Shown one piece after another: positions 25,176 to 46,320 of a stretch of 64,000 nucleotides of DNA. Numbering within the stretch: the first letter of the stretch is position 1; the number at the start of each line of letters is the position of its first letter. Both the position numbers and the translations under genes were made by a program. The notes under the pieces are model-generated. The model was given only the letters and a program-made list of their open reading frames with translations, made no database searches and was not told the DNA's origin. The DNA is from a bacterium (GTDB lineage: Bacteria > Pseudomonadota > Alphaproteobacteria > Rhizobiales > Aestuariivirgaceae), in NCBI GenBank assembly GCA_022842165.1, contig JALHQC010000015.1, positions 12,030 through 76,029 on the forward strand, read 5' to 3'.

Positions 25176-25200
25176 GGAACCTTTGCCGCCCTGTAGCATT
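25176..25200 (+). promoter_or_regulatory. EcfG/sigmaT-type promoter for the AI-2E gene
   Basis: GGAAC-N16-CATT. Confidence 0.7.
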
Positions 25201-25289
25201 TTAGGGTTGTATCGGCATACTTCGCATCCAGCTCACGCGGGAGTGCCGCATCCTTCATAAAGCCCTGAGCGGCATCTTCGAGGAACAGA

Positions 25290-27098
25290 ATGAGGCCTTT
25301 GCCCGCCGTGGTCTACCGCGAACAGAGCCTTGGCCCAGCGCCTGGACAGGCGCTCGTCAATGGTCTCTTCATATTTCTCGGCATCTGCGCCATTCTGTAC
25401 TTCGGGAGCGACATTCTCATTCCCGTGGCGCTTGCGGTTCTGCTGTCCATCCTGCTGGCGCCCGTCGTTTCGCTGTTGCAACGCTTGCGCCTGCCGAAAA
25501 CGCTTGCCGCCCTCACAACGGTATTTCTCGCGTTTCTGGTGCTCTCCGTGGTCGCTGCGGTTGTGGCCTCCACCCTCACCAACCTGGCTGCGGATCTCCC
25601 AAGTTATGAATCCAGCCTGCGGGAGAAAGCCCAGAACCTGAAGCAGATGACGTCGGGTAGCGGCACGCTGGAGCGCGCCGCGAATGTGCTGGAGGATCTT
25701 CGCACCGAGCTCGAAACGCAGGGGCCAGGCGCGGCGGGCACTGCCGCAGTACAGAAACCGATTCCGGTCGAGGTTCGGGAGCCAGGATATGGGCCGTTCG
25801 ATTCGGTCTTCGCAATTCTTGGCATTCTGATCCATCCGCTGACGCAACTCGGCATCGTGGTGCTTATGGTGACGTTCATCCTCATCTACCGCGAGGATTT
25901 GCGAAACCGTCTCATCAGGCTTGCAGGCACGGGTGATCTTCACCGCACCACGACGGCGCTCGACGAGGCGGGCCACAGGCTGAGCCGCCTGTTCGCAACC
26001 CAGCTGATGATCAACGGGCTGACCGGAGCCTTCATCGGAACGGCACTGTTCTTCATCGGCGTGCCGGGAGCGATATTGTGGGGCGTCCTCACCACCGTCC
26101 TGCGCTTCGTGCCCTATGTCGGTACCTTCCTCGCCTCGATATTTCCCATCATCATCGCCGTTGCGGTCGGCGACGGGTGGACGCTCGCCTTCATGACGCT
26201 GGGCGTGGTGCTGGTGACCGAAACCCTCGTCGGACACGTGCTAGAGCCTCTGTTCTTCGGTAAAACCACCGGGCTTTCTCCAGTTGCCATCGTGGCCTCC
26301 GCGGCGTTCTGGACGGCATTGTGGGGCCCTATCGGACTGGTCCTGGCAACGCCCATCACCATCATGCTTCTGGTGGTCGGCCGCCATATCGAGGCCCTTC
26401 AGTTTCTCGAAGTGCTGCTGGGATCGACGCCGGTGCTGACGCCGGATCACGCCTTCTATCAAAGAATGCTCGCCAACGATCCCATCGAGGCGGCAGAACA
26501 TGCGGAGACCTATCGCGAGGCAGGCGAACTGGACAAGTACATGACCGATGTGGTCATTCCCGGACTGCAGCTCGCGCAGTTCGACAAGGACCGGAAGGTG
26601 CTGACGCCGGAACGCGAAGTGTCGGTCGTGTCCACCTACTCGCGCCTCCTTGACGACATCTGGCCCGAGAATGACGAGGCAGAGGATGCGGCGTCCACGG
26701 TGTTTCTGATCTCGGCGCATGGCGCGTTGAACTTTGCGGCGACGCTCTCGGTTTCGGCCTATCTGAGGCTGAAGAATATTCCGCACCGCATGCTGCCGGA
26801 AGATGCCATCATGCCGGGCAAGTTTCCTGAGGACGCCGCGGCAGACGCTGCCTATGTGTGCCTCTGCTATCTGCAATCCCCCTCCGCGGCGAAGTATTCA
26901 TATCTCGAGAAGCGCATCGCGGCGCGGCTGCCAGATGCGAAGATTCTCGGTCTCGCGTGGGTCGATACCGAGGGTGGGCGCACCATGATCAACCCTGAGC
27001 ATGCCGCGGGCCTGTTGCCGTCCGCCGCCAGCGGCAGCAGCGAAATGATAGAGAACACGGCTCAGGAATCGCTTGATCTTTCTACCGTAACGTCTTGA
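25290..27098 (+). CDS. AI-2E family transporter with C-terminal soluble extension
   Basis: LIPVALAVLL.ILLAP, LRFVPYVG, EP..FG.TTGLSP.A, GPIGLVLATP. Confidence 0.88.
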   Translation: MRPLPAVVYREQSLGPAPGQALVNGLFIFLGICAILYFGSDILIPVALAVLLSILLAPVVSLLQRLRLPKTLAALTTVFLAFLVLSVVAAVVASTLTNLAADLPSYESSLREKAQNLKQMTSGSGTLERAANVLEDLRTELETQGPGAAGTAAVQKPIPVEVREPGYGPFDSVFAILGILIHPLTQLGIVVLMVTFILIYREDLRNRLIRLAGTGDLHRTTTALDEAGHRLSRLFATQLMINGLTGAFIGTALFFIGVPGAILWGVLTTVLRFVPYVGTFLASIFPIIIAVAVGDGWTLAFMTLGVVLVTETLVGHVLEPLFFGKTTGLSPVAIVASAAFWTALWGPIGLVLATPITIMLLVVGRHIEALQFLEVLLGSTPVLTPDHAFYQRMLANDPIEAAEHAETYREAGELDKYMTDVVIPGLQLAQFDKDRKVLTPEREVSVVSTYSRLLDDIWPENDEAEDAASTVFLISAHGALNFAATLSVSAYLRLKNIPHRMLPEDAIMPGKFPEDAAADAAYVCLCYLQSPSAAKYSYLEKRIAARLPDAKILGLAWVDTEGGRTMINPEHAAGLLPSAASGSSEMIENTAQESLDLSTVTS

Positions 27099-27148
27099 TC
27101 TTGCACATTGAATTTGGCGGACTGTCGCGTGTCGCGGCGGGCATCCTT

Positions 27149-27173
27149 GGAACTCCGATGTGGTTTGGCCGTT
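27149..27173 (+). promoter_or_regulatory. EcfG-type promoter for csbD
   Basis: GGAAC-N16-CGTT, perfect consensus. Confidence 0.85.
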
Positions 27174-27241
27174 TAAGTTTGCGATGGCGCTGCCAAGTGC
27201 CAACAGCATTTCGACTTCAACTTTTTTAGAGGAGAGCAATC

Positions 27242-27439
27242 ATGGATTGGGATCGGATCGAAGGAAGCTGGAAGACGTTCAAAGGCAAGGCCAAGACCCA
27301 GTGGGGCAAACTTACCGATGATGATCTCGATGTCATCGAAGGCCGCCGCGATGAACTGGAAGGCCGGTTGCAGAGTGCGTATGGGTATGAAAAGGATCGC
27401 GCCCGCACGGAAGTCGATAGCTGGATGAAATCGCTCTAG
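27242..27439 (+). CDS. csbD: CsbD family general stress protein
   Basis: MDWDRIEGSWK.FKGK.K.QWGKLTDDDL..IEGRR. Confidence 0.92.
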   Translation: MDWDRIEGSWKTFKGKAKTQWGKLTDDDLDVIEGRRDELEGRLQSAYGYEKDRARTEVDSWMKSL

Positions 27440-27655
27440 CGGACACTTCTCATCGGCGATCAGACAGAGGAAAACTGATCATGCGCTTCGTTACAACCAC
27501 TGCTATGGCGGTATGTCGGTTTGCAGCCTTGCCGTTCGCCGGAAGTCTGGCCAAGGACGCATTGCAGAAGAGCCGCATTTCTATCGATAGGAACAGGCTC
27601 GTAAGCAGGTACCGCCTATAAGTCTTTTGCACTGCAATCACTTGTATCATGTTAT

Positions 27656-27687
27656 AAGGGCCCGGACATTGCATCCGGGCCCTTTTT
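27656..27687 (+). terminator. Intrinsic terminator (probably bidirectional) between csbD and DUF1328
   Basis: 11-bp stem AAGGGCCCGGA/TCCGGGCCCTT followed by a T run. Confidence 0.75.
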
Positions 27688-27703
27688 CCGTTCTGCGAAA
27701 CTG

Positions 27704-27883
27704 TCAAGCCTTTCGTACAGCGCTGATGATGAACGACAGGATGGCAATCACGATCGCCACCCAGAACACGATCTTGGCGCCTTCCATCGCAGTGCCTGCG
27801 ACGCCGCCAAAGCCCAGAAGTGCGGCGATGATGGCCACGACCAGGAAGATGATCGCCCAGTGAAGCAAGTTGGAAAAATTCAT
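27704..27883 (-). CDS. DUF1328 small membrane protein
   Basis: [27 protein letters not shown]. Confidence 0.88.
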
Positions 27884-27933
27884 GATCTTGTCTCCGTCAA
27901 AGGATGGCAGACAGCTGGCATCCGTGCGTTGAC

Positions 27934-27958
27934 AATGTGGCGGCGACGGCGAAGTTCC
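27934..27958 (-). promoter_or_regulatory. EcfG-type promoter for DUF1328
   Basis: Minus strand GGAAC-N16-CATT. Confidence 0.75.
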
Positions 27959-27973
27959 CCTCGACCGCAACAC

Positions 27974-28573
27974 TCATTCGACAGTGCTGCGCACGGCCAA
28001 CGCGGCCTGGACGCGCGGCTCCACTCCGAACTCCGAAGTATCCTTCAGGTGCAGCAGCTCCCCGAGCTTGACACGCGCACGATTGACGCGGCTCTTGATC
28101 GTGCCAACCGCGACTCCGCATATCGCTGCCGCTTCCTCGTAGGACATGTCATTGGCGCTGACCAGAAGCAGCGCTTCGCGCTGATCGACCGGCAGCAGGC
28201 CAAGGGCAACCCGCATGTCGCTCAAATCCATGTAGCTATGCTGGGCCGGGTGAACGCCGACGTTGGCCGCGATAACGCCATCGGCGTCCTCGACCTCGCG
28301 CTTGCGTTTCCGGAATACAGTGTAGAACTCGTTCCGCAGGATGGTGAACAGCCATGCCTTGAGCTTGGTACCCGGTTCGAAGCTGGACCGGTTGGCCCAC
28401 GCCTTCATCAAGGTTTCCTGCACGAGGTCATCCGCGCGGTCGACCTTGCCAGTGAGCGAAATTGCGAAGGCCCTGAGCGGAGGAATAAACGCAATGAGAT
28501 CGTTCTTGAACTCACGATCGCTCATGGGAGACAAAACACTCCGGCCTGCGAATGACTTGACAACCTCAGTCAA
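27974..28573 (-). CDS. ecfG: ECF sigma factor EcfG/SigT (general stress response)
   Basis: LRAFAISL, ADDLVQETL.KAW, AWLFTILRN, GTIKSRVNRAR; downstream of nepR. TTG start overlaps the nepR stop; alternative ATG at 28525. Confidence 0.88.
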   Translation of the reverse strand: MTEVVKSFAGRSVLSPMSDREFKNDLIAFIPPLRAFAISLTGKVDRADDLVQETLMKAWANRSSFEPGTKLKAWLFTILRNEFYTVFRKRKREVEDADGVIAANVGVHPAQHSYMDLSDMRVALGLLPVDQREALLLVSANDMSYEEAAAICGVAVGTIKSRVNRARVKLGELLHLKDTSEFGVEPRVQAALAVRSTVE

Positions 28574-28743
28574 TCTTCACGCTCATCTGCCTTGTCGAGA
28601 TCCTGAAGGAGATCCAAAAACCGCTGCGGCACTTCCTGCCGGGAAATATCATCGTAATAGGCTCTGAGCTTTGTGCTCACAGCCTCCTTGACCACATGCT
28701 GGGCAGCAGAGGCCCTTGTCTTCTTCACTGGTTTGTCGCTCAT
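28570..28743 (-). CDS. nepR: Anti-sigma factor NepR
   Basis: KLRAYYDDI..QEVPQRFLDLL motif; lies between phyR and ecfG. Confidence 0.88.
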   Translation of the reverse strand: MSDKPVKKTRASAAQHVVKEAVSTKLRAYYDDISRQEVPQRFLDLLQDLDKADERED

Positions 28744-28797
28744 TTTTCCGATTTCGCGCGTACCCACCGCCGTCCGGGCAGCGGTCTGATGTTATAA

Positions 28798-28822
28798 AAT
28801 GCATTCAAACGCATCTTGTTCC
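28798..28822 (-). promoter_or_regulatory. EcfG-type promoter for nepR-ecfG
   Basis: Minus strand GGAAC-N16-CATT. Confidence 0.8.
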
Positions 28823-28841
28823 AATAAACTTGAAAAAATGT

Positions 28842-28866
28842 GGAACCGGACGATAAGTTTGGCGTT
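28842..28866 (+). promoter_or_regulatory. EcfG-type promoter for phyR
   Basis: GGAAC-N16-CGTT. Confidence 0.85.
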
Positions 28867-28923
28867 ATTGCATGACAGTCTCTATCAGGGAGGGCCGTGG
28901 CGTCAAGCCATGCCGTTGAATTC

Positions 28924-29718
28924 ATGAGTTTATCTGCCTCTGTTGCGCCGCACCTGCCTTTCTTGCGGCGCTTTGCGCGGGCTTTGACCGGTACCCAGGC
29001 GAGTGGCGATACCTATGTCGCTGCGGTGCTTGAAAGCTTGATTGCCGATCCGTCAATCCTGACGGGCTCAAGCAATCCCAAAATCACCCTCTATCAGACG
29101 CTTTGCACCTTGTGGGGATCGCTGCCGGTTAATGGCGGAAGTGACGTTGGTCAGCCAAGCTGGGAGGCAACAGTTCAGGGCCGCCTCGCCCATCTTCCGG
29201 GACCAGCCCGCCAGGTCTTCCTTCTATCGGCGGTTGAGGGATTCGATCGCCGCGATATCGCGAGGATCGTCAAGCAGACTGACAGCGAGGTCGATGCTCT
29301 CTTCGAGGAAGCCAACCAGCAGATCTCCGAGATGATCGCAAGCGACATTCTCATCATCGAGGACGAGCCGCTTATCGCGCTCGACATCGAAGACACGATT
29401 ACTTCACTTGGCCACCGGTCGGTCGGCATCGCGCGCACGCACAAGGAAGCTGTGAAGCTGGCGCGCGAGACGAATCCGCAGCTTGTACTGTCGGACATTC
29501 AACTCGCCGACGGCAGCTCCGGGATCGACGCCGTCAACGACATACTCCAGAGTTTCGATGTGCCGGTGATCTTCATCACGGCTTTCCCCGAACGTCTGCT
29601 GACCGGCGAGCGCCCTGAACCGGCGTTCCTCATCACCAAACCATTCTCGCCTGAAATGGTAAAGGCCCTCATCGCGCAAGCTTTGTTCTTCGACCTGCGC
29701 TCCAAAAAAGCGGCATAG
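28924..29718 (+). CDS. phyR: PhyR anti-anti-sigma response regulator
   Basis: N-terminal sigma-like domain (LPFLRRFARALTG) plus receiver (IEDEPLIALDI, SDIQLADGSSG, FITAFPERLLTGERPEP). Confidence 0.95.
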   Translation: MSLSASVAPHLPFLRRFARALTGTQASGDTYVAAVLESLIADPSILTGSSNPKITLYQTLCTLWGSLPVNGGSDVGQPSWEATVQGRLAHLPGPARQVFLLSAVEGFDRRDIARIVKQTDSEVDALFEEANQQISEMIASDILIIEDEPLIALDIEDTITSLGHRSVGIARTHKEAVKLARETNPQLVLSDIQLADGSSGIDAVNDILQSFDVPVIFITAFPERLLTGERPEPAFLITKPFSPEMVKALIAQALFFDLRSKKAA

Positions 29719-29735
29719 CAAGCCTTTCGACATGC

Positions 29736-29760
29736 AAAAGGACCCGGCGTGACCGGGTCC
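29736..29760 (-). terminator. Intrinsic terminator for the micropeptide gene (may also serve phyR)
   Basis: 8-bp stem GGACCCGG/CCGGGTCC with AAAA on the plus strand (U tract on the minus strand). Confidence 0.7.
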
Positions 29761-29796
29761 GGTATGGTTCTTTCCGTGTGCCGTTCCTGAATCGTC

Positions 29797-29868
29797 TCAG
29801 AACAAGAGGTAGATCAGGATGATAACGGAGATCGGAACGCCAAGAAGCCACAAAACGATGCCTTTCAT
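29797..29868 (-). CDS. 23-aa hydrophobic micropeptide MKGIVLWLLGVPISVIILIYLLF
   Basis: Below the track cut-off; AGGAGG RBS, own EcfG promoter and own terminator. Confidence 0.8.
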   Translation of the reverse strand: MKGIVLWLLGVPISVIILIYLLF

Positions 29869-29898
29869 GAAATCCTCCTGTCATTGACATGCTGAGGC

Positions 29899-29923
29899 AA
29901 TGCCGCCGGGTGCGCATGGTTCC
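29899..29923 (-). promoter_or_regulatory. EcfG-type promoter for the micropeptide
   Basis: Minus strand GGAAC-N16-CATT, 30 nt upstream of the ATG. Confidence 0.78.
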
Positions 29924-29959
29924 GCAATCTGTATTGAAAGGGAGTCGGCGCGTTCCGAT

Positions 29960-30982
29960 ATGGAAGAAACGATGGCAGAAATGACGATACAGCCGGCTTC
30001 GGCCGGAACGGCTCCCAAGCCTGAAACTCGTGCGCACACAGGGCGGACGGCGGTGCTGATCAATGCGCAATCCGGCACAGTGCGCAGCATGGGTGTCGAT
30101 GCCGCTCGAGCACTGGTCGAGTCCGAGCTTTCGAAATGGCCTGCTCCGGCCGAACTCCACATCCTGTCCGGCGCAGAAATCGATAGCACCGTTCGCGACA
30201 TGATCCGTTCAAAGACAGTCTCGGCCATAGTGGCAGGAGGCGGCGACGGCACGATCGCTAGTATTGCCGGGCACCTTGCGGGCACGGACATTGCGCTTGG
30301 CATGCTGCCGCTCGGCACCATGAATCTCATGGCCAAGTCGCTCGATATCAGCCAAGACCTGACTGAAGCGCTGTCGCAGCTCGGCAACGCGACGACACAA
30401 AAGATCGATGTCGGGCGCGTGGATGGCCGCGTGTTCCTCCATCATGTGTCACTCGGCATCCAGCCCCGCATGGTGCGCATCCGCGAAAGACTGGGCTACA
30501 GTTCGCGCTGGACCAAGATGCTGGCGGGAGCGCGCGCCATGCTTTCGGTTATCCTGAAGCCGCAGTCGATGCGGCTGAAAGCCGTTATCGACGGCCAGCC
30601 AAAGGAGATGAAGGCGCCGGCGTTCGTCATCAGCAACAATCGCTACGAGGATTCGGGGTGGATGAAGCACAAGCGCCTCGATGAAGGAGTTCTGGGTGTT
30701 TATGCAGTGAAGCCGATGTCGACCTTGGCTTTTCTGAAACTCGCGATGGACATGCTGCGCGGCCGCTGGCGTGACAACCTGAACGTAGAGGAAGGCAGCG
30801 CGCATGAGGTACGGCTGGAGAAACGGAGAAGGTTTGGCGGCAAGAGCCGGGCGTTGCTTGGTTCGCTGGACGGTGAAGTTACCCTGCTGAGGTCTCCCGT
30901 CGAGATTCGCATCGATCGCAGCGCGCTGAATGTACTGATTCCTCCGGTGGAGAATGCAGGGAATGGGCAGGAACTTTCGTAA
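29960..30982 (+). CDS. Diacylglycerol/lipid kinase family (YegS/BmrU-like)
   Basis: LINAQSG, GGGDGTI, LPLGTMNL.A, IDVG, LDGE; exact start uncertain (29960 or 29972). Confidence 0.85.
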   Translation: MEETMAEMTIQPASAGTAPKPETRAHTGRTAVLINAQSGTVRSMGVDAARALVESELSKWPAPAELHILSGAEIDSTVRDMIRSKTVSAIVAGGGDGTIASIAGHLAGTDIALGMLPLGTMNLMAKSLDISQDLTEALSQLGNATTQKIDVGRVDGRVFLHHVSLGIQPRMVRIRERLGYSSRWTKMLAGARAMLSVILKPQSMRLKAVIDGQPKEMKAPAFVISNNRYEDSGWMKHKRLDEGVLGVYAVKPMSTLAFLKLAMDMLRGRWRDNLNVEEGSAHEVRLEKRRRFGGKSRALLGSLDGEVTLLRSPVEIRIDRSALNVLIPPVENAGNGQELS

Positions 30983-30994
30983 ATCGACGACGTT
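30970..30994 (+). promoter_or_regulatory. EcfG-type promoter for the Pro/Thr-rich protein, overlapping the kinase stop
   Basis: GGAAC-N16-CGTT. Confidence 0.8.
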
Positions 30995-31035
30995 GGGTCG
31001 GTAACGCGGAAAGTTGCATTCAATTCGAGGAGAGC

Positions 31036-32545: not shown

Positions 32546-32971
32546 ATGACGCAGTTTCAATCGCTCGAAACGGTGATTCCGCTTCTTCAACCTTGTATTG
32601 TAGTCGAGGACGATGCGATTATCCTGCTCGACATCGAGCATACGTTGCGTCATCTCGGCTTCAGCGATATCCGCACCTCGACCACACTGGCAATTGGCTC
32701 GAAGCTGGCCGATGCGCCGGACATCCGCCTTGCCCTGCTGGATTTCGAACTGGGCCGAACGGTTACCAGCCTGGCACTGGCCGAGGCCCTTCTGCAGCGC
32801 GGGATTCCGATGGTTTTCCTGACCGCATATGGCGCGGACTTGCAGCTCCCCTCCTCGCTCGCCCACATTCCGATCATCGCGAAGCCATTCACCACCGAAA
32901 CGCTTGCTGCCACGCTTGCTGGCCTGACGCGAGTTGGCGCGGCTGCGAAGAGCCCGTGCGTCTGTAGCTGA
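32546..32971 (+). CDS. Single-domain response regulator (MrrA/SdrG-like)
   Basis: VVEDD, ALLD, PMVFLTAYG (FATGY-like), KPF. Confidence 0.8.
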   Translation: MTQFQSLETVIPLLQPCIVVEDDAIILLDIEHTLRHLGFSDIRTSTTLAIGSKLADAPDIRLALLDFELGRTVTSLALAEALLQRGIPMVFLTAYGADLQLPSSLAHIPIIAKPFTTETLAATLAGLTRVGAAAKSPCVCS

Positions 32972-33174: not shown

Positions 33175-34092
33175 ATGAACAATACAGCGGCACGTCGCGT
33201 AGGCGTAATCGGGCTCGGGTCGATGGGGCTCGGCATGGCGCAATCGATGGTGCGCAAGGGATTGAAAGTCCGTGGCTTCGATCTCAACCCTTCAGGCATC
33301 GCCCGGCTTGAAGCCGCGGGCGGAGAAGCTGCGGCAAGTCTTGAAAACGCTGCCGCGGATGCGGATATCCTGGTCAGCGTCGTCGTCAATGCCGCGCAAA
33401 CGGAGAGTGTTCTGTTCGGCGAGAATGGCGCAGCCAGAAGCCTGGCGCGCGGCGCCGTGATCGTGTCCTGTGCCACCATGTCTCCGGACGATGCACGGCG
33501 ACTCGAAGCCAGGGCACAGGCGGCGGATCTCCATTACCTCGACGCGCCGATCAGCGGCGGAGCTGCCAAGGCTTTATCGGGACGGCTGACCGTCATGGCG
33601 TCGGGATCGGCCGCAGCATTCGCGAAGTCGCGGCCGGCACTCGATGCCATGGCCGAGACAGTCTATGAGCTTGGCGACAAGGCCGGCATCGGGGCATCCT
33701 TCAAGATGGTGAACCAGCTGCTTGCTGGCGTTCACATTGCGGCGGCCTGCGAGGCGGTGACTTTCGCCAAACGTCTCGGACTGGACCTCGACCAGGTCTA
33801 CAAGGTGATCACAGCCTCGGCGGGGAACTCCTGGATGTTCGAAAACCGCGTACCGCATATTCTCGAGGGCGATTATACCCCGCGCAGTGCGGTGGAAATC
33901 TTCACCAAGGATCTCGGCATCGTCAGCGACATGGGACGGCGGGAAAAATTTCCTTTACCCGTCGCGGCGACGGCGCTTCAACTGTTCATCATGACAGCAG
34001 CAGCCGGAATGGAGCGCGACGATGATGCGTCGGTGGCGCGCATGATCGCAGGACTGACAGGGCTGGAACTTCCAGCCGCCAGAAAGGACTAG
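33175..34092 (+). CDS. ltnD: L-threonate dehydrogenase-like beta-hydroxyacid dehydrogenase
   Basis: GLGSMG.GMA, DAPISGGA.KA, KMVNQLLAGVHIAAACEA, ENRVPHILEGDYTPRSAVEIF.KDLGIV. Confidence 0.8.
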   Translation: MNNTAARRVGVIGLGSMGLGMAQSMVRKGLKVRGFDLNPSGIARLEAAGGEAAASLENAAADADILVSVVVNAAQTESVLFGENGAARSLARGAVIVSCATMSPDDARRLEARAQAADLHYLDAPISGGAAKALSGRLTVMASGSAAAFAKSRPALDAMAETVYELGDKAGIGASFKMVNQLLAGVHIAAACEAVTFAKRLGLDLDQVYKVITASAGNSWMFENRVPHILEGDYTPRSAVEIFTKDLGIVSDMGRREKFPLPVAATALQLFIMTAAAGMERDDDASVARMIAGLTGLELPAARKD

Positions 34093-34099
34093 ACCCATC

Positions 34100-34867
34100 A
34101 TGCCAAGATTTGCGGCTAATCTCTCCATGATGTTCACCGAATGGAGCTTTCTCGATCGCTTCGCGGCGGCGGCCGATGCGGGCTTCACGGCCGTCGAATA
34201 TCTGTTTCCCTACGCCTTCGATGCCGACGACATCGCCGGCCGGCTTTCCCGCAACGGGCTGACGCAGGCGCTCTTCAACCTGCCGCCCGGCAACTGGGAC
34301 GCAGGCGAGCGCGGGCTTGCGTCAAACCCTGCGCGGGCGGAAGACTTTCGCGCCTCCATCCAGACGGCGCTGCCCTATGCCATGGCGACCGGAGCGAAGC
34401 GTTTGCATCTGATGAGCGGACACGGCGACCGTCGCGACGCGCTGGCGCTGGAAAGCTACAAGACTGCCATCCGCCATGCCTGCGATGCGGCAGCACCCCT
34501 CGGGATCGACATTCTCATCGAGCCGATCAACGGGCGGGACATGCCGGGTTATTTTCTCAACGACTTCACATTTGCAGCGAACCTCGTCGCCGAAATGGGT
34601 ATCGTCAATCTGAAGCTTCAGTTCGATATCTACCATCGCCAAATCCTCCATGGCGATGTCATGAAGAGTCTGGAGGCGCTGATGCCAGTCATCGGCCATG
34701 TGCAGGTGGCGTCAGTGCCAGGGCGCAACGAACCTGGCACTGGAGAACTCGACGATGCACGCATATTCCGTCGCCTCGACGCGCTGGGATACCAGGGCTT
34801 CGTGGGTTGCGAGTATCGGCCAGCCGCCGGCACCCTGGAAGGGCTGGGCTGGATGCGCGGCCTCTGA
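34100..34867 (+). CDS. otnI: 2-oxo-tetronate isomerase / hydroxypyruvate isomerase family
   Basis: MPRFAANLSMMFTE, LIEPIN.RDMPGY, FDIYH.Q, HVQVA.VPGR.EP, GCEYRP. Confidence 0.78.
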   Translation: MPRFAANLSMMFTEWSFLDRFAAAADAGFTAVEYLFPYAFDADDIAGRLSRNGLTQALFNLPPGNWDAGERGLASNPARAEDFRASIQTALPYAMATGAKRLHLMSGHGDRRDALALESYKTAIRHACDAAAPLGIDILIEPINGRDMPGYFLNDFTFAANLVAEMGIVNLKLQFDIYHRQILHGDVMKSLEALMPVIGHVQVASVPGRNEPGTGELDDARIFRRLDALGYQGFVGCEYRPAAGTLEGLGWMRGL

Positions 34868-34986: not shown

Positions 34987-35487
34987 CTAACGGCGGCTGC
35001 GGCCGCCGCTACGGCCGGATGAGGCCGTACCGAACCGGTTCATGCGGCCAAGCGGGCTCGGCAGCATCAGGCCGATCATCGCGCCGATCCCGAGGCCGAT
35101 GGCGCCGAGCATATAGGGGCGCTCGTCAGCCAGTTTCTGGACCATGCGCTGATCGGGAATGCCGCGAGCGGCGAGCGGAAGCGCCCGGCTTGCGCCTTCG
35201 GCGGCCCATTCATAGGCGCCACCCGCAGCACGTTTGCCGCGGCGCAAAAGCCGGGTCGCCGCGCCGGCATATCCGGTTCTTGCCGCAGCGGATTTCTTGG
35301 CGGTATTGCGCCCGCTACGCTTCGGGCCGGCTTTCGCGGCGCTCTTTGTGGCGCGCGAACCCGCCGCGGCCGCTGCCGGCTTCCGTTTTGCCGCGCCCCT
35401 GCGGGCGCCGGCCTTCCGCGCGCGATTCTTCGGCTGTGGCGACGTCGAGGTCACGCCATTCGCTTCCACTGATTTTTCCGCTGTCAT
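34987..35487 (-). CDS. Highly basic Lys/Arg/Ala-rich protein with a C-terminal YqjD/ElaB-like membrane anchor
   Basis: AAKRKPAAA...AAKAGPKR...AKKSAA N-terminus; ERPYMLGAIGLGIGAMIGLMLP anchor; AAGGAG RBS. Confidence 0.7.
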   Translation of the reverse strand: MTAEKSVEANGVTSTSPQPKNRARKAGARRGAAKRKPAAAAAGSRATKSAAKAGPKRSGRNTAKKSAAARTGYAGAATRLLRRGKRAAGGAYEWAAEGASRALPLAARGIPDQRMVQKLADERPYMLGAIGLGIGAMIGLMLPSPLGRMNRFGTASSGRSGGRSRR

Positions 35488-35797
35488 TGTTGTTCTCCTT
35501 TGAGGTTGCTCTTGGTGGTACGGGATCAGGCTCCCGCGGGCTTCGCGGCTTGTCCTTGTTGCGGCGGGGAGCGCCCACCAGCCAGCCAGCGCCTGCCAGC
35601 ACGGCGAGGCTAAGCAGCCTGTGTCTTCCAATGCTCGACCGGATACGGCCAAGCAGCGTCAGATCAGGATCGAGAAATGACATCACGTCCTCGGCAAGCT
35701 GCGGCGGGCTGACACGGGCCTTGAGCTCGGCAACCGTATCCAGGAGTGCCCTGCGGCTCGCGGCGAGTTCGGCCAAGGCTTCGGGCTTTGCTGTCAT
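35315..35797 (-). CDS. DUF3618/YqjK-like protein
   Basis: ELAASRRALLDTVAELKARVSP; TM LLSLAVLAGAGWLVG; ATG overlaps the holin-like stop. Confidence 0.65.
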   Translation of the reverse strand: MTAKPEALAELAASRRALLDTVAELKARVSPPQLAEDVMSFLDPDLTLLGRIRSSIGRHRLLSLAVLAGAGWLVGAPRRNKDKPRSPREPDPVPPRATSKENNNDSGKISGSEWRDLDVATAEESRAEGRRPQGRGKTEAGSGRGGFARHKERRESRPEA

Positions 35798-36195
35798 CGT
35801 CCAGTATCCATGCCGGAACCGCGCGTGAACCAACGGAAGAAAATGCTTTCGGTTTGCCAGGAGAGTGTCTTCCGCATCGCCATGATGGCGATGGCGGCGA
35901 TCGCCAATAGCAGCCCCGTTACCACCAAGGCTGCAAGCCCGGTGCTGCCAAGAACGGGTGTGAGCAGAGCAATCCCCGCCTGCGACAGAGCAATCAATGC
36001 GCACAGGCCAGAGGACAAGGCCAGCATCGCCCATGCCGCTGCGCGAATGACCCGGTTCTTCAGGTCCACGAGTTCGAGCTTGGCCACTTCCGACTCGGCT
36101 GAAGCCCACCTGCGGCCATCGGCCATCAATTTTTCGATAAGCCGGCTGATTTCAATTCGAGGATTGGGGTTCGCGCCGGTCGCACCTTTCAGCAT
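35794..36195 (-). CDS. Phage-holin-superfamily (YqjE-like) membrane protein
   Basis: SAESEVAKLEL..LK followed by two TM helices; start set at ATG 36195 because the promoter overlaps the track start. Confidence 0.7.
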   Translation of the reverse strand: MLKGATGANPNPRIEISRLIEKLMADGRRWASAESEVAKLELVDLKNRVIRAAAWAMLALSSGLCALIALSQAGIALLTPVLGSTGLAALVVTGLLLAIAAIAIMAMRKTLSWQTESIFFRWFTRGSGMDTGR

Positions 36196-36268
36196 CTGGA
36201 AGACATCACTCGCTTGCTGCCGTGACCTGGCATGTGAAGCCGGATATTCATTTTCCGTTACGGGCTGG

Positions 36269-36293
36269 AACGTCACTGCTTCGCAATAGTTCC
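36269..36293 (-). promoter_or_regulatory. EcfG-type promoter for the yqjE/K/D-like operon
   Basis: Minus strand GGAAC-N16-CGTT. Confidence 0.8.
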
Positions 36294-39975: not shown

Positions 39976-40072
39976 CCCTTCTGCACATCGGCAGCTGAAG
40001 CAGGACAATGCCCGCAGGCCATATCCGCTCGCGGGCAGTTCCGTATCTAGTGTTTCAGTGGTTGTGAGGAAC

Positions 40073-41167
40073 TCAAGCGTCCGGAACGCTGTGCGTATGA
40101 GGAGAGCGCGGCGTTGCCGAAGGGTCGCCCTCAAGCCCGTATATCGCGGCGTGGATGCCCCAGTAGCTTGTGGCGAAGAGTACCAGTGCAAGCGCGAGCG
40201 ATGCCGGCACCATCGCGATCGCCCGCAGGCTTGCCTGGGCCTGCGGCGCGGCCTTCGTCTGATCCGCGGCGATGGCGATGATGATGGCCATGATCAGGGC
40301 ATGACCGATCAGATCGACCCGGCCAAAGGGATAGACCGCAGCAGTGAAGATGACGAGCAAGGCGATGGCCGAAAGCCGGCGCACCAGCGGGGTCCACAGC
40401 ATGCCGAAACCCAGCGTGAACTCCGCCACCCCCGCCATGGGAATGAAAACATCGCGCGGCAGGCCAAAGGTGAGGAACGGCTTTTCCACCACCAGGGGAT
40501 AGAACCAGTCAGGATAGGCGAATTTTTCCAGGCTGGACCACATGAGGGCGATCGCGACACCCCATCGCAGCACGGAGAACCGGTGCTTTCGCCAGGTTTC
40601 GCGACTGGATGACTCCATGACGAGATAGGCGGCGACGGCAACACCGAGAGCCAGATAGTCGAGCAGGTGGAAAAAGGCATAGTCGCGCAAGGCGACGACC
40701 CACAGCAGGATGATCAGGCCCGCGGCAATGAACTGCGTGGCGCGGAAAAAGACGAGAGCGGCAATCAGCAGCTGAAGCCATGAGACCCACTCGGCGGGTG
40801 TCCGCAGGTCCGGCGTCAGATAAACGCCGCCGACCGCGAAGACAGCGACAAAGAATGCGGCAATGACGGCGCGGACAAAGTCATCGAGCCGCGAACCGAT
40901 GGGCTCGGTCACCCGGTTCAGCCCGGCGAGAGCGGTCTGCCCGAGGCGCGACTGCTCGACAAGATACGTGGCGATGAAGAAAACAATGACGAGCGCCAGT
41001 CCGGTCCAGAACCATGGATCCTCAAGAGTGCGGATGACGGGCTGTGGTGCTGCCTCCACGATATAGGGCGCAAACCACTTCACATGTGCGGAAGCCGGCA
41101 CAGCCATGCACCCGCTCCAGACGGAAACGGCAGCGAATATGGAATTGATCGCTCTGGCTCTGCTCAT
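40073..41167 (-). CDS. DoxX-family membrane protein (AHVKWF type)
   Basis: Signal peptide ending ASA|HVKWFAPY; duplicated DoxX-like halves; SSLEKFAYP, DLIGH. Confidence 0.7.
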   Translation of the reverse strand: MSRARAINSIFAAVSVWSGCMAVPASAHVKWFAPYIVEAAPQPVIRTLEDPWFWTGLALVIVFFIATYLVEQSRLGQTALAGLNRVTEPIGSRLDDFVRAVIAAFFVAVFAVGGVYLTPDLRTPAEWVSWLQLLIAALVFFRATQFIAAGLIILLWVVALRDYAFFHLLDYLALGVAVAAYLVMESSSRETWRKHRFSVLRWGVAIALMWSSLEKFAYPDWFYPLVVEKPFLTFGLPRDVFIPMAGVAEFTLGFGMLWTPLVRRLSAIALLVIFTAAVYPFGRVDLIGHALIMAIIIAIAADQTKAAPQAQASLRAIAMVPASLALALVLFATSYWGIHAAIYGLEGDPSATPRSPHTHSVPDA

Positions 41168-41199
41168 GCTCCACCATCACCGGCAGGTGTCCGGAGCGG

Positions 41200-41224
41200 A
41201 ACGGCGCAAAACTGGCAGGGTTCC
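41200..41224 (-). promoter_or_regulatory. EcfG-type promoter for the DoxX-like gene
   Basis: Minus strand GGAAC-N16-CGTT, 32 nt upstream of the ATG. Confidence 0.82.
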
Positions 41225-41248: not shown

Positions 41249-42304
41249 CTAGTCGTAACCGGTCATCTCGATATAACCGCGCCCGGCATGGGTCCCCTCG
41301 AAACGCACCGGTCCTTCCCAATACGACACTTGTGTCGCCATCCAGGCTTCGGGGTTGAGCGCCCGCGTTTCGACGCGAAATCCCTTCGCGGGAAGTTCCA
41401 CCCTCCAGCGAGTCGGGACTTCGCGGCCTGCGACTGTTTCGGTTTCGAGCGGGGTGACTGCAAGGGCAGCGGGGGGCTGGGGCTCGGGAGTTCCGTCCGG
41501 TGCGATCCAGGTGGCAGACGTAAACCCGCCGGTTTCATCGCGCAGCCGGAAGCCCATCAGTTTCTCGCCCGATTCGAGGTGGAAGGAAAACCAGTCCCAC
41601 CCGGTCTGGCTGGGTGCCAGGGGCTGCGACGACCATTCATGGTCGAGCCAGGCCTGCCCCTCGACCGCAACGTCACCGCCGGGGAGCGACAGCGTGCCGC
41701 TGACGGCATAGAAGGGCTGCGAATAATAGAAACTTGCCTGGCCTTCAGCCGATTTCACCGAATATCCCTGTTGCCCCTGCAGCACAGGCGGGCGCTGGGC
41801 ATCGAGCTTCAGCTTATAGGAGAACTCCTTGCCCGACGCCGAAAGGTCGATTTTCGAAATCTGGTCCACGCCCCCGGCCGCTGAAGATGCCATGCGCCAG
41901 TCGTCGATCCAGGCGGCGAAGGGTTCCGCCGTAACGCCTGCCTGCCCGATGCCGCCACGCGACATGCGCTCGGCCACGAAATGACTCGTTGCCGAGGTCA
42001 CCGCAGCGTGACCCATCCACAGTTGCGGGCTGTCCCATCCGGCTTTCTCCTGCGGCGCCAGCGCCGAACGGAACAGGGTCCACTGCACGCCGTAATCCTC
42101 GCCGTCGGCGCCCTTCAGGTTCGCCGTGAGATACCACCATTCGATGCGGTACTCGGGATGCGGGCCGTGGTCCCTGGGAAAGATGATCGCACTGCCGGGC
42201 TGCGGAACGGCGAAGCCTTCGGCGTCCGTTCCCAGGCCAGCAAACCCCTGGGCCAGGGCTGGAACGGCGAGGAAGAGATAGATCAGAAACGCCCTAACGC
42301 TCAT
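41249..42304 (-). CDS. Secreted lipocalin-like / AttH (CrtC-like) protein
   Basis: Signal peptide; FPRDHGPHP.YRIEWWYLTANL, YYYSQP-like SFYYSQP, WLDHEWSSQ, GWDWF, YWEGPV. Confidence 0.82.
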   Translation of the reverse strand: MSVRAFLIYLFLAVPALAQGFAGLGTDAEGFAVPQPGSAIIFPRDHGPHPEYRIEWWYLTANLKGADGEDYGVQWTLFRSALAPQEKAGWDSPQLWMGHAAVTSATSHFVAERMSRGGIGQAGVTAEPFAAWIDDWRMASSAAGGVDQISKIDLSASGKEFSYKLKLDAQRPPVLQGQQGYSVKSAEGQASFYYSQPFYAVSGTLSLPGGDVAVEGQAWLDHEWSSQPLAPSQTGWDWFSFHLESGEKLMGFRLRDETGGFTSATWIAPDGTPEPQPPAALAVTPLETETVAGREVPTRWRVELPAKGFRVETRALNPEAWMATQVSYWEGPVRFEGTHAGRGYIEMTGYD

Positions 42305-44708
42305 GGGCAAAGACTTTCAGCAATACGGCGGGCCGCAGATTGAGCAAGCGCAGCGCAGGCAGGAGGGCAGCGGCGCCGGCCGCGGCAAGCGACAGCGCGC
42401 CGAGCAAAGCCCAATCGGCCGGGAAGACGTAAAGCGGCAGGCGCCAACCGAAGGCTTCGACATTGATGACCGCGAGCAGCACCCATGCGAGGCCAAGACC
42501 GGCTGGAATCGCGAGCAGCAGGGTCAACGCCGCAAGAGAAACGCTGCGGGCGAGTTCGAGCGCGGCGAGGTGCCGGCGTGTAAGCCCCATGGCCCATACC
42601 GGCGCCAGTTGCGGCAGGCGCATTCCCGCCAGTGTCAGCAGGCTCGAGAGGATCGCCAGGCCCGCGACGGCGAGGGTCAGAACGTTGAGTGCCGCGGTTA
42701 CCGCAAATGTCCGCTCGAAGATCTTCAACGAGAAGGATTTGATGCTGGCCTGATCGACAACATTTTGTGCCGGGAGACCGAATGCGGTGAGAAGGTCTTC
42801 CCGGAGTTTTCCGGCCTTCTCCGGATCGATCCGGACGGCATATCTCAGGCGGCCGATATCGGGATAAAACCTGACGAGGGTATCGTTGCCCAGAATTACC
42901 TGGCCCTTTGGGTTTCCATAGTCGGAAAAAATTCCAGCGACCGGCAGGCGATGGCCCCCCGGCAAGGTCACGTCCGCTCCCAGCCGCAGCGACAGGCGCC
43001 GGGCCAGCTGTTCGTTGACCATCAGGGCTTTTCCTTGTGCAACGAAGTCCCACACCTGCGGATCGGCGGTAAGTAGCGGCCACTTCTCCCGATATGTCGC
43101 GTGATCGAGGATGCCGAAGATCTGGACTTGCTGATTTGCAATTTGCCCCTCGGTACTCCAGATCGGCAACACCGCATCGCTGCGCGGTGAAAGCCAATTG
43201 CGCAATGCTGCGGCTTCTTCCTCGGTGCGGGCCGTGACGTAGAGTTCGGAGGTCAGGCGCTGATCGAGCCAGCCGACGAAGGTGAGGCGGAAACTCGACA
43301 CCATCGTGCCGACGCCGATGTTCGTTGCAAGCGCCAGAAGCAAGGCCATGAGTGCGAGCGAAAGACCCGGAAGCTGCTGGCGCGTATCGGCCCAGAACCA
43401 TTCCCCCAGAGCGGATGAAGAAACCCGCGCGCCGCCGGCGATGAGCCAGGAGAGCAGCAACGGCAGCAGCAGCGCGGCACCGAGAAGCATAGCCGCCAGC
43501 AAGGCAAAACCCGCAGCGAGTCCGGTGCCGAAATGCGCAAGCAGCAGCGCACCCGCCAGCAATGCCGCTCCGGCGATTGCCTGCAGCCGCATGTGGCGCT
43601 CGGAAGCCCTTGCCCATGCGCGCGGCTGGGCCGGGGCAAGCAAAGTCATGCGGGACACCTGCCAAAGTCCCCGCCCCGCCGAGAGAAAGGTCCCGGCGAC
43701 CGAAATCGCCACGCCCGCAAGCCACACCGCCGGGCGGATCGAAAGCGAACCCGGCACTTCGGCGCCATAGAGTCCGCGCAAGCTTGCTGCGACGTCGGGC
43801 AGCAGCAAGGATGCAATCCAATATCCCAGCACGACGCCCGCAAATCCGGCGATGAGAGCGAACACCGAAAGCTCGGCAACAAGCAGAAGGGTCAGCGCGC
43901 GGGCGGGCAATCCGAGCGCGCGCAGGGTGCGGAATACTGGCCGGCGCTGCTCGAAGGCCAGACCGATGGCCGCGTGAACGATGAAAAGCCCAACAGCGAA
44001 GGCCAGGAATCCGAAGGCTGTGAGGTTAAGGTGAAAACTGTCGGTCAGCCGGGACAGGTCGCTTTCCGCCGCTGGCGTCCTTACCTCGAGTTCCGGCGCG
44101 AGAATGGACAATGCGGCGCGGTCGATGAGCTGGTCCGGCGGCAGAAGAAGCCGCGACAGCCGTGGCCCGACGCCTAGAATGTCCTGGGCGATGCCAATAT
44201 CCGTCAGCGCTGTGCCGGCGGGAAGACTGTCGACAATCCGCAAGGGTGGTGCCGCATGCCCGGCAAGCCGCCGGGCGGTTTCCGCCGACACGAAGAACAA
44301 GCCAGGCGGAGCGATGAAGGCCCCAAGCCCGCCTTCGGCGGCCATGACATCGATCTGACGCGCCACCGGCGGCAGGGTGAGCGGGTCAATGCCGATGATC
44401 TTCACCCGCTGCTCGCCATACCGCTTTTCTCCTTCGACTACTGGCGAGACCAGCCAGCCATTCCGGCGCAGCGTGACGAACAGCTGTTGATCGAAGCGGG
44501 CTCCATCGGCGCGGGCAAGGCTTGCAAGCCTGTCCTGTCCCAGAACCGCCGCGGCCCGGGCGTAGCTCGCGCGCGCTTCGCCATTGATGGCCTGTACCGC
44601 GGACCATAGCCCCGTGGCGAGCGAAAGCCCCAGCAGCAGCATGGCAAGCTGAAGCGGCTTGCGCCGCCAGTGAGACAAGAGCGCCGCAAGGCCAGATCGC
44701 CACATCAT
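42294..44708 (-). CDS. FtsX-like ABC transporter permease (AttG-like)
   Basis: SHWRRKP.QL, FHLNLTAF, SFR.TF..WL.QRL, IFERTFAVT, AFGWRL. Confidence 0.85.
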   Translation of the reverse strand: MMWRSGLAALLSHWRRKPLQLAMLLLGLSLATGLWSAVQAINGEARASYARAAAVLGQDRLASLARADGARFDQQLFVTLRRNGWLVSPVVEGEKRYGEQRVKIIGIDPLTLPPVARQIDVMAAEGGLGAFIAPPGLFFVSAETARRLAGHAAPPLRIVDSLPAGTALTDIGIAQDILGVGPRLSRLLLPPDQLIDRAALSILAPELEVRTPAAESDLSRLTDSFHLNLTAFGFLAFAVGLFIVHAAIGLAFEQRRPVFRTLRALGLPARALTLLLVAELSVFALIAGFAGVVLGYWIASLLLPDVAASLRGLYGAEVPGSLSIRPAVWLAGVAISVAGTFLSAGRGLWQVSRMTLLAPAQPRAWARASERHMRLQAIAGAALLAGALLLAHFGTGLAAGFALLAAMLLGAALLLPLLLSWLIAGGARVSSSALGEWFWADTRQQLPGLSLALMALLLALATNIGVGTMVSSFRLTFVGWLDQRLTSELYVTARTEEEAAALRNWLSPRSDAVLPIWSTEGQIANQQVQIFGILDHATYREKWPLLTADPQVWDFVAQGKALMVNEQLARRLSLRLGADVTLPGGHRLPVAGIFSDYGNPKGQVILGNDTLVRFYPDIGRLRYAVRIDPEKAGKLREDLLTAFGLPAQNVVDQASIKSFSLKIFERTFAVTAALNVLTLAVAGLAILSSLLTLAGMRLPQLAPVWAMGLTRRHLAALELARSVSLAALTLLLAIPAGLGLAWVLLAVINVEAFGWRLPLYVFPADWALLGALSLAAAGAAALLPALRLLNLRPAVLLKVFAHER

Positions 44709-45385
44709 GCCAGGCGTCCATTGCGCAGATGCACGCGACCATCGAGCCGGGCCGCCAGCCGCGTCGAATGGGTGACCATCAAGAGGGACGCCCCGGTTTC
44801 GGCCTGGAGCGACAGCATCAGATCGAGCACGGCATCGCCGGTTGCCTCGTCGAGGTTGCCAGTGGGTTCGTCCGCGAGAATCAACCGCGGCCTGACCGCA
44901 AGCGTACGGCCAATGGCGACGCGCTGCTGCTGGCCGCCGGACAGTTGTTCCGGGTAACGCGCGAGGAAGGGTTTGAGGCCAAGGCGTTCAGCCAGTCCCG
45001 CCGTCCATGCCGGATCGAAGCGGCCGGCGAGCCGGGCCTGAAATGCAAGATTTGCCGCCACGTCGAGCGAGGGGATCAGGTTGAACTGCTGAAACACCAG
45101 GCCCACCGTTCCCCGGCGAAGAGCTGCGAGCCCAGCATCGTCGAGCGCTGCGATATTCTGCCCATTGAGAACGATGCTGCCAGAATCCGGCGTATCCAGT
45201 CCGGCCACAAGATGCAGAAGCGTACTCTTTCCGCTGCCGGATTCGCCCGTGAGCGCAATGCTCTTGCCCGGCTCCAGCGACAGGTTCACGTTTTTCAGAA
45301 CCTGAAGCGGCCCTTCGCTGGTGGCAAAGGCCTTGCTGACATCGTGGAGACGGAGAAGCATTCGGTCTTTCTTGATACGCGGCAT
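44705..45385 (-). CDS. ABC transporter ATP-binding protein (LolD/MacB-like)
   Basis: GESGSGKST, LSGGQQQRV, ILADEPTGNLD. Confidence 0.92.
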   Translation of the reverse strand: MPRIKKDRMLLRLHDVSKAFATSEGPLQVLKNVNLSLEPGKSIALTGESGSGKSTLLHLVAGLDTPDSGSIVLNGQNIAALDDAGLAALRRGTVGLVFQQFNLIPSLDVAANLAFQARLAGRFDPAWTAGLAERLGLKPFLARYPEQLSGGQQQRVAIGRTLAVRPRLILADEPTGNLDEATGDAVLDLMLSLQAETGASLLMVTHSTRLAARLDGRVHLRNGRLA

Positions 45386-45445
45386 TGATCCCTGATTACG
45401 CAGGACGGCGCAACACGGACCGGGGTTCCATCAGTAAGCAGGATG

Positions 45446-46213
45446 CTACTGCGCTTCAGTCATCCACGTGAGCATTTGCTGCCAGAGGCGGCGATAGCCC
45501 TGCCAGGCGCAAAATTCGGCCGACAGCCAGTGCGGGCCGATATCGGACGTCCACGCAACGGTGCGGCCTTTGCCATAGGTGCCGGCTACGAGCAGCGGGT
45601 GGCCGCCCTGATCCGCAGGCAGTGTGGCGATCACCTCGGCTCCGGGCTTCGGCCGCACCTCGTTGACGCCGAGCACCGGCGGCCAAGGCCCTGAAATCTC
45701 CTTAACGATGGCGTGGTTCGGCAGTTTCACCACTGCCGAAGCGCCTTCCGGCATCTCGATACGGTCGTCATAGGCCAGGCACTCGACAGGCAGTGCTTCC
45801 TCTACAGCCGTGCCACGCCAGCGCGCGCGGCCATCAATGCCCTGGAAGCTCAAATAACCGCCTATCATGGCCAGGCTACCGCCCTGTCCGACCCAATCGC
45901 GGATAAGCTTCACGCGGTTCGGAAAGGTTTTGGACCGCAGCCAGACGTCCGGATGCAGCAGGATCGAATTGGCGCCGATATCGGACAGCAATACGGCGTC
46001 GTATGACGACAGCGCCTCCATGGTGGCAGGGAACTTCTCGGGCGCATCGTGGCCCGTCATGTAATCTAGGTCAAAGGGGCTGTCTTTCAGCGCAGTCACG
46101 AGCGGTTCGGCTCCCAAATGAAAGGTGACGCTGCTGAATTGGTCAAACCCCTTGAAATGAGTGGAGGCCGAAACCCAGCTCTCGCCAACAAGCAAGACCC
46201 TTTTCTGCGGCAT
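45446..46213 (-). CDS. DUF1355 class I glutamine-amidotransferase-like protein
   Basis: LLVGESW, YDAVLLSDIGANS, MIGGY.SFQGI.G, WTSDIGPHW. Confidence 0.8.
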   Translation of the reverse strand: MPQKRVLLVGESWVSASTHFKGFDQFSSVTFHLGAEPLVTALKDSPFDLDYMTGHDAPEKFPATMEALSSYDAVLLSDIGANSILLHPDVWLRSKTFPNRVKLIRDWVGQGGSLAMIGGYLSFQGIDGRARWRGTAVEEALPVECLAYDDRIEMPEGASAVVKLPNHAIVKEISGPWPPVLGVNEVRPKPGAEVIATLPADQGGHPLLVAGTYGKGRTVAWTSDIGPHWLSAEFCAWQGYRRLWQQMLTWMTEAQ

Positions 46214-46294
46214 GTGCTGTTCCTCTTTGCGCCTCGATCCGGTTGACCACAAGTTAGAACAGGCAGACAGTCAGCCGCCACTGAAAACTCGGGC

Positions 46295-46320
46295 GGAACA
46301 GGGCCGGCTCCATGAACGTT
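46295..46320 (+). promoter_or_regulatory. EcfG-type promoter (17-nt spacer) for the secreted protein
   Basis: GGAAC-N17-CGTT. Confidence 0.55.

Follow-up and report, generated by a model that had tools for sequence, protein, structure and literature searches.

To which system do the genes surrounding phyR, nepR and ecfG belong, and do these regulators and their presumed targets form a unit of their own? The question is raised by positions 25,176 to 46,320 of a 64,000-nucleotide stretch of alphaproteobacterial DNA from the family Aestuariivirgaceae (the window, i.e. C15:12030-76029 of a 4.30 Mb assembly in 117 contigs), for which a first-pass annotation had described a self-contained regulon island with at least 15 EcfG-type promoters. 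The evidence assembled here favours, with a probability of roughly 0.85, a chromosomal general stress response (GSR) locus of an Aestuariivirga species, in which phyR and the divergent nepR-ecfG pair lie amid a dense neighbourhood of EcfG-type promoters. The analysis shows that the motif is present, enriched, oriented and conserved, and identifies the genes; dependence on the sigma factor, transcription starts, induction by stress and what the products do are predicted from motif, position, conservation and the literature on the families concerned.

Regulators and divergent promoter boxes

The phyR product consists of an N-terminal sigma-like domain and a C-terminal receiver domain, as a partner-switch system requires. 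PhyR is 92% identical to its counterpart in an Aestuariivirga metagenome-assembled genome, 84% to those of three other relatives and 83% to that of Aestuariivirga litoralis KCTC 52945. The nepR gene shares the strand of the sigma gene and precedes it by 45 nt. In most of 80 phyR loci surveyed in the order (see below), the phyR-adjacent sigma gene occupies the same position as ecfG and is 55-91% identical to it. Back-to-back boxes precede nepR-ecfG and phyR (Table 1), as expected of autoregulation. This divergent pair is kept in three related loci (L031, L033 and L035, the last being A. litoralis KCTC 52945), and a box was present ahead of nepR in 66 and ahead of phyR in 61 of the 80 surveyed loci.

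EcfG-type boxes in the window and in the genome

The motif GGAAC-N16-CGTT was derived experimentally for EcfG1 of Rhizobium etli (PMC3892343). Within the window, GGAAC-N16/17-CGTT was matched 10 times as compared to 0.85 expected from dinucleotide shuffles (maximum of 4 in any shuffle) and GGAAC-N16/17-CATT 6 times as compared to 0.96, with the observed counts being reached in none of 100 shuffles. A relaxed scan added variant boxes at 36969(-), with AGTT, and at 39380(+), with GGTT. All 15 of the boxes proposed by the first-pass annotation around phyR-nepR-ecfG were recovered where it had placed them, spread over 21 kb. Its description of these boxes as lying in or at intergenic DNA in the correct orientation was also borne out: each faces a gene start 22-143 nt downstream, and all are intergenic except for box 30970, which overlaps the final 13 nt of the upstream DAGK gene. 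The proposed identity with the EcfG/sigmaT/RpoE2 consensus agrees with the R. etli motif and with conservation at orthologous positions, and genes typical of the general stress response are among those that the boxes precede. A sixteenth match, at 38665(+), is located inside the SLC13 permease gene and probably occurs by chance, leaving 15 of the 16 matches in the block upstream of a gene and oriented towards it.

Two boxes (36267-36293 and 41198-41224) are near-palindromic (i.e. GGAAC...GTTCC) and match both strands. Bidirectional use of these boxes was considered and is unlikely, as the opposite side carries no suitably oriented gene.

For the whole genome, a caller based on codon usage predicted 4199 genes, which account for 89% of the DNA, and a box was counted when it was intergenic and a gene of its own strand began at most 300 nt downstream. 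By this measure there were 33 boxes for N16-CGTT, 11 for N17-CGTT, 15 for N16-CATT and 8 for N17-CATT. Controls with the wrong spacer (N14, N15 or N18 with CGTT or CATT) produced 0-3 each, indicating that the motif is specific for both spacer and position. These 67 boxes, with 3 others missed by the gene calls, amount to about 70 predicted promoters. A 16 kb segment (25176-41224) holds 14 of the genome's boxes as compared to 0.26 expected (Poisson P about 6e-20), while the runner-up 20 kb stretch of the genome contains 4. The regulators share 0.5% of the genome with about 20% of the predicted targets. In 30 relatives, raw genome-wide counts of the motif proved too noisy when set against a reversed-pattern control. 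A repeat search detected no repeat family carrying the boxes, and the spacer sequences were mutually unrelated.

Conservation and linkage in relatives

Gene order is largely kept in L031, L033 and L035, for which some genes were uncalled or lay beyond the fetched stretch in some loci. Boxes in these loci precede the AI-2E transporter gene, csbD, nepR, phyR, the Pro/Thr-rich protein gene, crp, the holin-X-like operon, the 165-amino-acid (aa) protein gene and the SLC13 permease gene; those of the AI-2E transporter, the Crp/Fnr-type regulator and the 165-aa protein are kept in all three, the last at the same place. Corresponding box positions were retained in four related Aestuariivirga genomes. 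The retention of short intergenic motifs between species with 50-80% protein identity is good evidence of function. Similarly, linked DUF892 orthologs in three genomes (G032, G033 and G034) keep a GGAAC-N17-GGTT box, and homologs of the secreted 235-aa protein in A. litoralis and G031 have a box about 50 nt upstream.

Only the nearest sampled species, G002, is collinear. In four genomes (G010, G012, G015 and G017), AI-2E and/or SLC13 orthologs were found on contigs other than that of phyR, and crp is 20 kb away in G012. The unlinked orthologs of SLC13 (in G012 and G013) and AI-2E (in G010, G012 and G015) are still preceded by a GGAAC-N16-CGTT box; the SLC13 box is also kept where the gene is linked (L035 and G002). 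Regulon membership therefore travels with the gene and not with the block.

Clustering of boxes around phyR in the Hyphomicrobiales

The survey comprised 80 phyR loci with 10 kb on each side, drawn from Aestuariivirga, Hoeflea, Mesorhizobium, Aquibium, Devosia, Rhizobium and others. A total of 582 boxes was detected in 1.49 Mb as compared to roughly 42 expected at the window shuffle rate, with 500 being intergenic and oriented (median of 6 per locus of roughly 20 kb). Relative to phyR, box density was raised between about -8 kb and +4 kb and peaked at 2.3 per 2 kb, as against 0.02-0.14 per 2 kb for a wrong-spacer control. The recurrent boxed neighbours were DUF1328 (54/80 loci), a DUF883-like 111-aa protein (51/80), the PRC barrel (42/80), the AI-2E transporter (32/80), DAGK/YegS (21/80, the more distant loci), CsbD (21/80) and an HWE kinase (18/80). 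Counted in the same manner, the window has 12 boxes, equal to the maximum in the survey, and 11 were counted in several loci. Clustering around phyR is order-wide, and the window is a large but ordinary example with lineage-specific extras. The first-pass annotation had regarded the physical clustering of regulators and targets as the interesting part of its proposal; the clustering is real, but it is not special to this DNA, being found across the 80 loci and in RpoE2 data for Sinorhizobium meliloti. No statement of this wider clustering as an explicit rule was found in the part of the literature that was searched, and an earlier one may exist outside it.

The GSR locus of the Hyphomicrobiales is on this evidence larger than phyR-nepR-ecfG with or without a kinase, extending over roughly 12 kb with about 6-7 EcfG-type promoters and a set of recurrent partners (i.e. 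DUF1328, DUF883-like, PRC barrel, AI-2E, DAGK/YegS and CsbD) that serve as a useful annotation rule. For the present genome, the analysis provides a well-supported regulon prediction of about 70 promoters, one fifth of them at the GSR locus, and thereby places many small membrane proteins that lack annotation in a regulatory context. The proximity of a sigma factor gene to its targets is a modest evolutionary question and entails no new mechanism. A more speculative proposal, which we regard as doubtful, is that the crowding of targets within about 12-20 kb of ecfG is a selected, order-wide architecture rather than a historical accident, that it recruits genes by gain of boxes in place, and that the SLC13/TrkA_C permease is a genus-wide, previously unlisted member. 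The gene for the 344-aa membrane protein, boxed here and in L136 and unboxed in Bosea and Neorhizobium, would exemplify such in-place gain. Were the proposal true, the cell might benefit because sigma factor that has just been released or synthesized is captured rapidly nearby, or because a minimal set of survival genes is inherited together.

Alternative explanations

With only 9 fixed bases in the motif, one match within a gene (38665) and two near-palindromes (36267/36269 and 41198/41200) matching the opposite strand too, the boxes might not be promoters but matches due to chance or base composition, or else members of a dispersed repeat family. That explanation has a negligible probability given that no shuffle out of 100 reached the observed counts, that wrong-spacer controls gave 0-3 boxes as compared to 33 intergenic oriented ones, that unrelated spacers reject an origin in a repeat element and that species whose proteins are 50-80% identical have kept the boxes. 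The boxes may instead be genuine promoters of which some or most are read by another extracytoplasmic function (ECF) sigma factor whose AAC/CGT-type motif is similar, rather than by the adjacent EcfG; the reader would be either an EcfG paralog or a further ECF factor. The genome does encode further ECF sigma factors and an EcfG paralog of 61% identity (C98:2304-3131), behind which lies a boxed gene for a DUF3309 micro-protein; paralogous EcfG factors share a motif in R. etli and Sphingopyxis, and RpoE6 activates 27 RpoE2 targets in S. meliloti. Against this, boxes ahead of both phyR and nepR-ecfG are a hallmark of EcfG autoregulation, clustering peaks at the ecfG locus in 80 genomes, and the paralog on C98 has neither a NepR partner nor a box of its own, making another sigma factor an unlikely main reader of the boxes. 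Some observations nevertheless weigh against reading the locus as an EcfG-controlled GSR neighbourhood. The paralog on C98 could serve some of the boxes, the gene starts are the output of a home-made caller, and false positives are commoner among the CATT and variant -10 boxes, where the spacer control puts them at about 3 in 15. No upstream box was found for SLC13 in G017. PhyR matches were lacking in 6 of 18 sampled genomes of the same genus (G013, G009, G001, G003, G004 and G016), for two of which (G013 and G009) an EcfG match was likewise not found; G013, at 100% completeness, still has a consensus box ahead of its SLC13 ortholog and a box cluster on contig C20. In this genome the regulators could be missing through a gap in the assembly, or could have been lost recently while the boxes survived.

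The first-pass annotation had also called the block self-contained and had suggested a synteny comparison to determine whether it moves as a unit. A self-contained, horizontally mobile regulon island would be consistent with the location of the regulators and about 20% of the targets in 0.5% of the genome, and with the collinearity of G002. Neither part of the proposal withstood the analysis. All five HWE/HisKA_2 kinase (HWE_HK) genes of the genome are on contigs other than that of the block, the second EcfG is also elsewhere, about 80% of the predicted promoters lie outside the locus, and several genes within the block are unboxed, including embedded metabolic genes. No tRNA gene, integrase (among the Pfam matches in the window) or flanking repeats were detected at the block, and its G+C content of 0.57-0.64 shows no marked shift from the approximately 0.61 of the flanks. 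Members are dispersed in G010, G012, G015 and G017, which have phyR but carry the AI-2E and/or SLC13 orthologs on different contigs from it, and the core neighbourhood is syntenic in many genera, which points to vertical descent. Movement as a unit was rejected on these grounds as very improbable, and the locus is better regarded as a chromosomal GSR locus.

Proposed mechanism

From domain architecture and the literature on these families, a partner switch may be proposed for the locus. HWE/HisKA_2 kinases encoded elsewhere would pass phosphoryl groups to PhyR, perhaps by way of the local SdrG-like single-domain regulator, and phosphorylated PhyR would capture NepR. The freed sigma-EcfG would then bring RNA polymerase to GGAAC-N16/17-(C/N)(G/A)TT boxes, and would amplify itself from the two divergent promoters, that of phyR and that of nepR-ecfG. 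In the neighbourhood it would switch on at least 13 transcription units, and about 55 more elsewhere in the genome. The local targets would be mostly small membrane or envelope proteins, together with two transporters and a Crp-type second-tier regulator. The cluster appears to be vertically inherited yet fluid, with an order-wide core (i.e. AI-2E, CsbD, DUF1328, PRC barrel, DAGK and a small tail-anchored protein) to which this sub-lineage has probably added the Crp, SLC13, holin-X-like and 344-aa members.

Genes of the locus

Table 1. Genes and EcfG-type boxes in and around the block (window coordinates; each box has the strand of its gene; boxes are N16 unless marked)
Feature	Coordinates	Strand	Box	Family match or remark
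AI-2E family transporter	25308-27098	+	25176-25200 CATT	Pfam
csbD	27242-27439	+	27149-27173 CGTT	Pfam CsbD
DUF1328 gene	27704-27883	-	27934-27958 CATT	Pfam
ecfG	27974..28525	-		Pfam Sigma70_r2 and r4_2; downstream of nepR
nepR	28570..28767	-	28798-28822 CATT (nepR-ecfG)	Pfam NepR PF18557, 43.6 bits
phyR	28924..29718	+	28842-28866 CGTT	Pfam PhyR_sigma2, PhyR_sigma-like, Response_reg (PF22029, PF22233, PF00072)
Short unit beside phyR	29736-29923	-	29899-29923 CATT	AGGAGG ribosome-binding site; open reading frame 29868-29797
DAGK/YegS-like lipid kinase	29960..30982	+	no own box	Pfam
Pro/Thr-rich single-pass membrane protein	31036-31488	+	30970-30994 CGTT	no Pfam family
Crp/Fnr-type regulator	31572-32333	-	32476-32500 CGTT	Pfam HTH_Crp_2
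Single-domain response regulator, SdrG/Sma0114-like	32546..32971	+	no box	
3-Hydroxyisobutyrate-dehydrogenase-like and xylose-isomerase-like TIM barrel	33175..34867	+		Pfam; embedded non-members
Three-gene operon	34987..36293	-	36269-36293 CGTT	
Operon gene, holin-X-like	35794-36195	-		Pfam
Operon gene, DUF3618-like	35315-35797	-		weak match
Operon gene, basic 166-aa protein	34987-35487	-		
165-aa tail-anchored protein	36438-36935	-	36969-36993 AGTT variant	
PRC-barrel gene	37010-37372	-	37421-37445 CGTT	Pfam
CitMHS/SLC13-type permease, two TrkA_C domains	37526-39319	+	37462-37486 CGTT	Pfam
DUF892/YciF-like gene	39484-39975	+	39380-39404 GGTT variant	Pfam
344/364-aa multi-pass membrane protein	40073..41224 (gene 40073-41167)	-	41200-41224 CGTT	
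CrtC/AttH-like, FtsX permease, ABC ATPase and GATase1-like operon	41249..46213	-		Pfam
Secreted 235-aa protein	46342-47049	+	46295-46320 N17 CGTT	no family match

The short unit next to phyR contains a 23-codon hydrophobic open reading frame (ORF) followed by a hairpin with a T run, and is convergent on phyR. The peptide is kept beside phyR in 8 Aestuariivirga-like loci, 5 of these being boxed, and the unit is therefore at least also an mRNA. A weak match of 19 bits, below threshold, was obtained to Rfam Atu_C9, a Rhizobiales small RNA (sRNA), and an Rfam scan of 24-48 kb produced nothing beyond this hit. The unit may be a small mRNA that is annotated elsewhere as an sRNA. In the three-gene operon, the ORFs for the DUF3618-like and basic 166-aa proteins overlap by about 170 nt in different frames, so that one start or one gene model of this pair is probably wrong.

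Family assignments in the first-pass annotation were only partly supported. The labels AI-2E, CsbD, DUF1328, Crp, PRC, SLC13/TrkA-C and YciF are borne out by Pfam, but DoxX, peptidoglycan-binding and ElaB-like are unconfirmed: these gave no Pfam or NCBIfam match even at E values of up to 10, and BLAST provided no support. The 165-aa protein, labelled ElaB-like, matches no family in Pfam or NCBIfam, DUF883 included, and a BLAST comparison with the DUF883-like protein that takes its role in other genera revealed no similarity. The secreted 235-aa protein gave no peptidoglycan-binding match. For the 344-aa protein, labelled DoxX, there was likewise no Pfam or NCBIfam match at E up to 10. Its homologs (about 70% identical) are widespread in the Hyphomicrobiales, and most of them possess a C-terminal DUF305/CopM metallochaperone domain that the window copy lacks; only one distant homolog carries a 'DoxX family' UniRef name and one has a MauE Pfam match. 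A search of the five nearest named genomes did not detect the gene. In Bosea and Neorhizobium its homologs are unboxed, while one of 87% identity on a related metagenome contig (L136) is boxed. Judged from these sequence comparisons, the gene looks like a recent recruit to the regulon.

Among the unboxed genes, DAGK, the single-domain response regulator and the dehydrogenase/isomerase pair had no box even with two mismatches allowed, and the CrtC-FtsX-ABC-GATase operon had no consensus box and only two matches with two mismatches. In A. litoralis, the DAGK gene begins 63 nt past phyR. For the response regulator, the nearest solved structures are 2lpm (Sma0114) and 5ieb (SdrG, a single-domain regulator linked to the GSR in Sphingomonas), followed by PhyR receivers, and the NCBIfam match is to the PhyR receiver. 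This protein is a candidate phosphorelay partner of PhyR. A 41-nt stretch of 80% identity is shared between the coding sequences of the phyR receiver (29357-29397) and of the response regulator (32604-32644).

Comparison with known systems

The R. etli EcfG1 system (Martinez-Salazar 2009; Jans 2013, PMC3892343) has an identical consensus and spacing and also a paralogous EcfG2. Its consensus was obtained from transcriptomics, whereas the Aestuariivirga boxes are predicted and include conserved CATT, GGTT and AGTT variants.

The rpoE2 locus of S. meliloti comprises phyR/rsiB1 (SMc01504), nepR/rsiA1 (SMc01505), rpoE2 (SMc01506), a kinase gene (SMc01507), SMc01508 and SMc01509. On overexpression of RpoE2, SMc01505-01509 and the adjoining intergenic probes were raised as one run (PMC6180224 supplement). 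The two loci share divergent phyR/nepR-ecfG units, the GGAAC...CGTT promoter type, small membrane protein neighbours, induced in S. meliloti, and intergenic RNA next to phyR. The S. meliloti locus differs in including an HWE kinase and in being shorter, with about 6 co-induced genes, whereas that of Aestuariivirga lacks a kinase, has 15 boxes in 21 kb and contains the Crp, SLC13/TrkA_C, holin-X-like operon, DUF892 and 344-aa membrane protein genes as extras. Heat shock of Mesorhizobium loti induces mll3685 (PRC barrel), mll3694 and the rpoE2 ortholog mll3697 (PMC3989490). Sigma-EcfG-dependent sRNAs of the GsrN-like type typically adjoin the GSR locus (Tien 2018, PMC5869019). The unit at 29736-29923 resembles these in being short, EcfG-boxed, ended by a terminator and located beside phyR, the place predicted for GsrN-like sRNAs in the Rhizobiaceae, and differs from them in its strong ribosome-binding site and 23-codon ORF.

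An RNA-seq study of Sphingomonas melonis Fr1 found EcfG dependence for a boxed Crp-like gene (#0072) and for PRC-barrel, DAGK-like, 'predicted permease' and cardiolipin-synthase-like genes (Gottschlich 2019, PMC6599016), and PRC genes are EcfG- or RpoE2-dependent in both S. melonis and S. meliloti. Fr1 also shares an SdrG-type single-domain regulator. It differs in belonging to the order Sphingomonadales and in a motif given as GGAAC-N17-20-GTT, and clustering around phyR is unmentioned in that report (PMC6599016). Several targets in the block had been put forward in the first-pass annotation as not recognised among the established members of the regulon. In view of the families that are EcfG-dependent in S. 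melonis, most of these have a precedent, including the Crp-like regulator and a permease. TrkA and DoxX are absent from the Fr1 data set (PMC6599016), and the SLC13/TrkA_C permease and the 344-aa membrane protein stand as plausible candidates for new or lineage-specific regulon members.

Two boxes were observed elsewhere in the window. A perfect CGTT box at 53188-53212 (+) is not followed by a gene. A GGAAC-N16-CATT box lies 142 nt ahead of a PLD/cardiolipin-synthase-like gene (54167-55874, +), and a similar cardiolipin-synthase-like gene is EcfG-dependent in S. melonis (PMC6599016).

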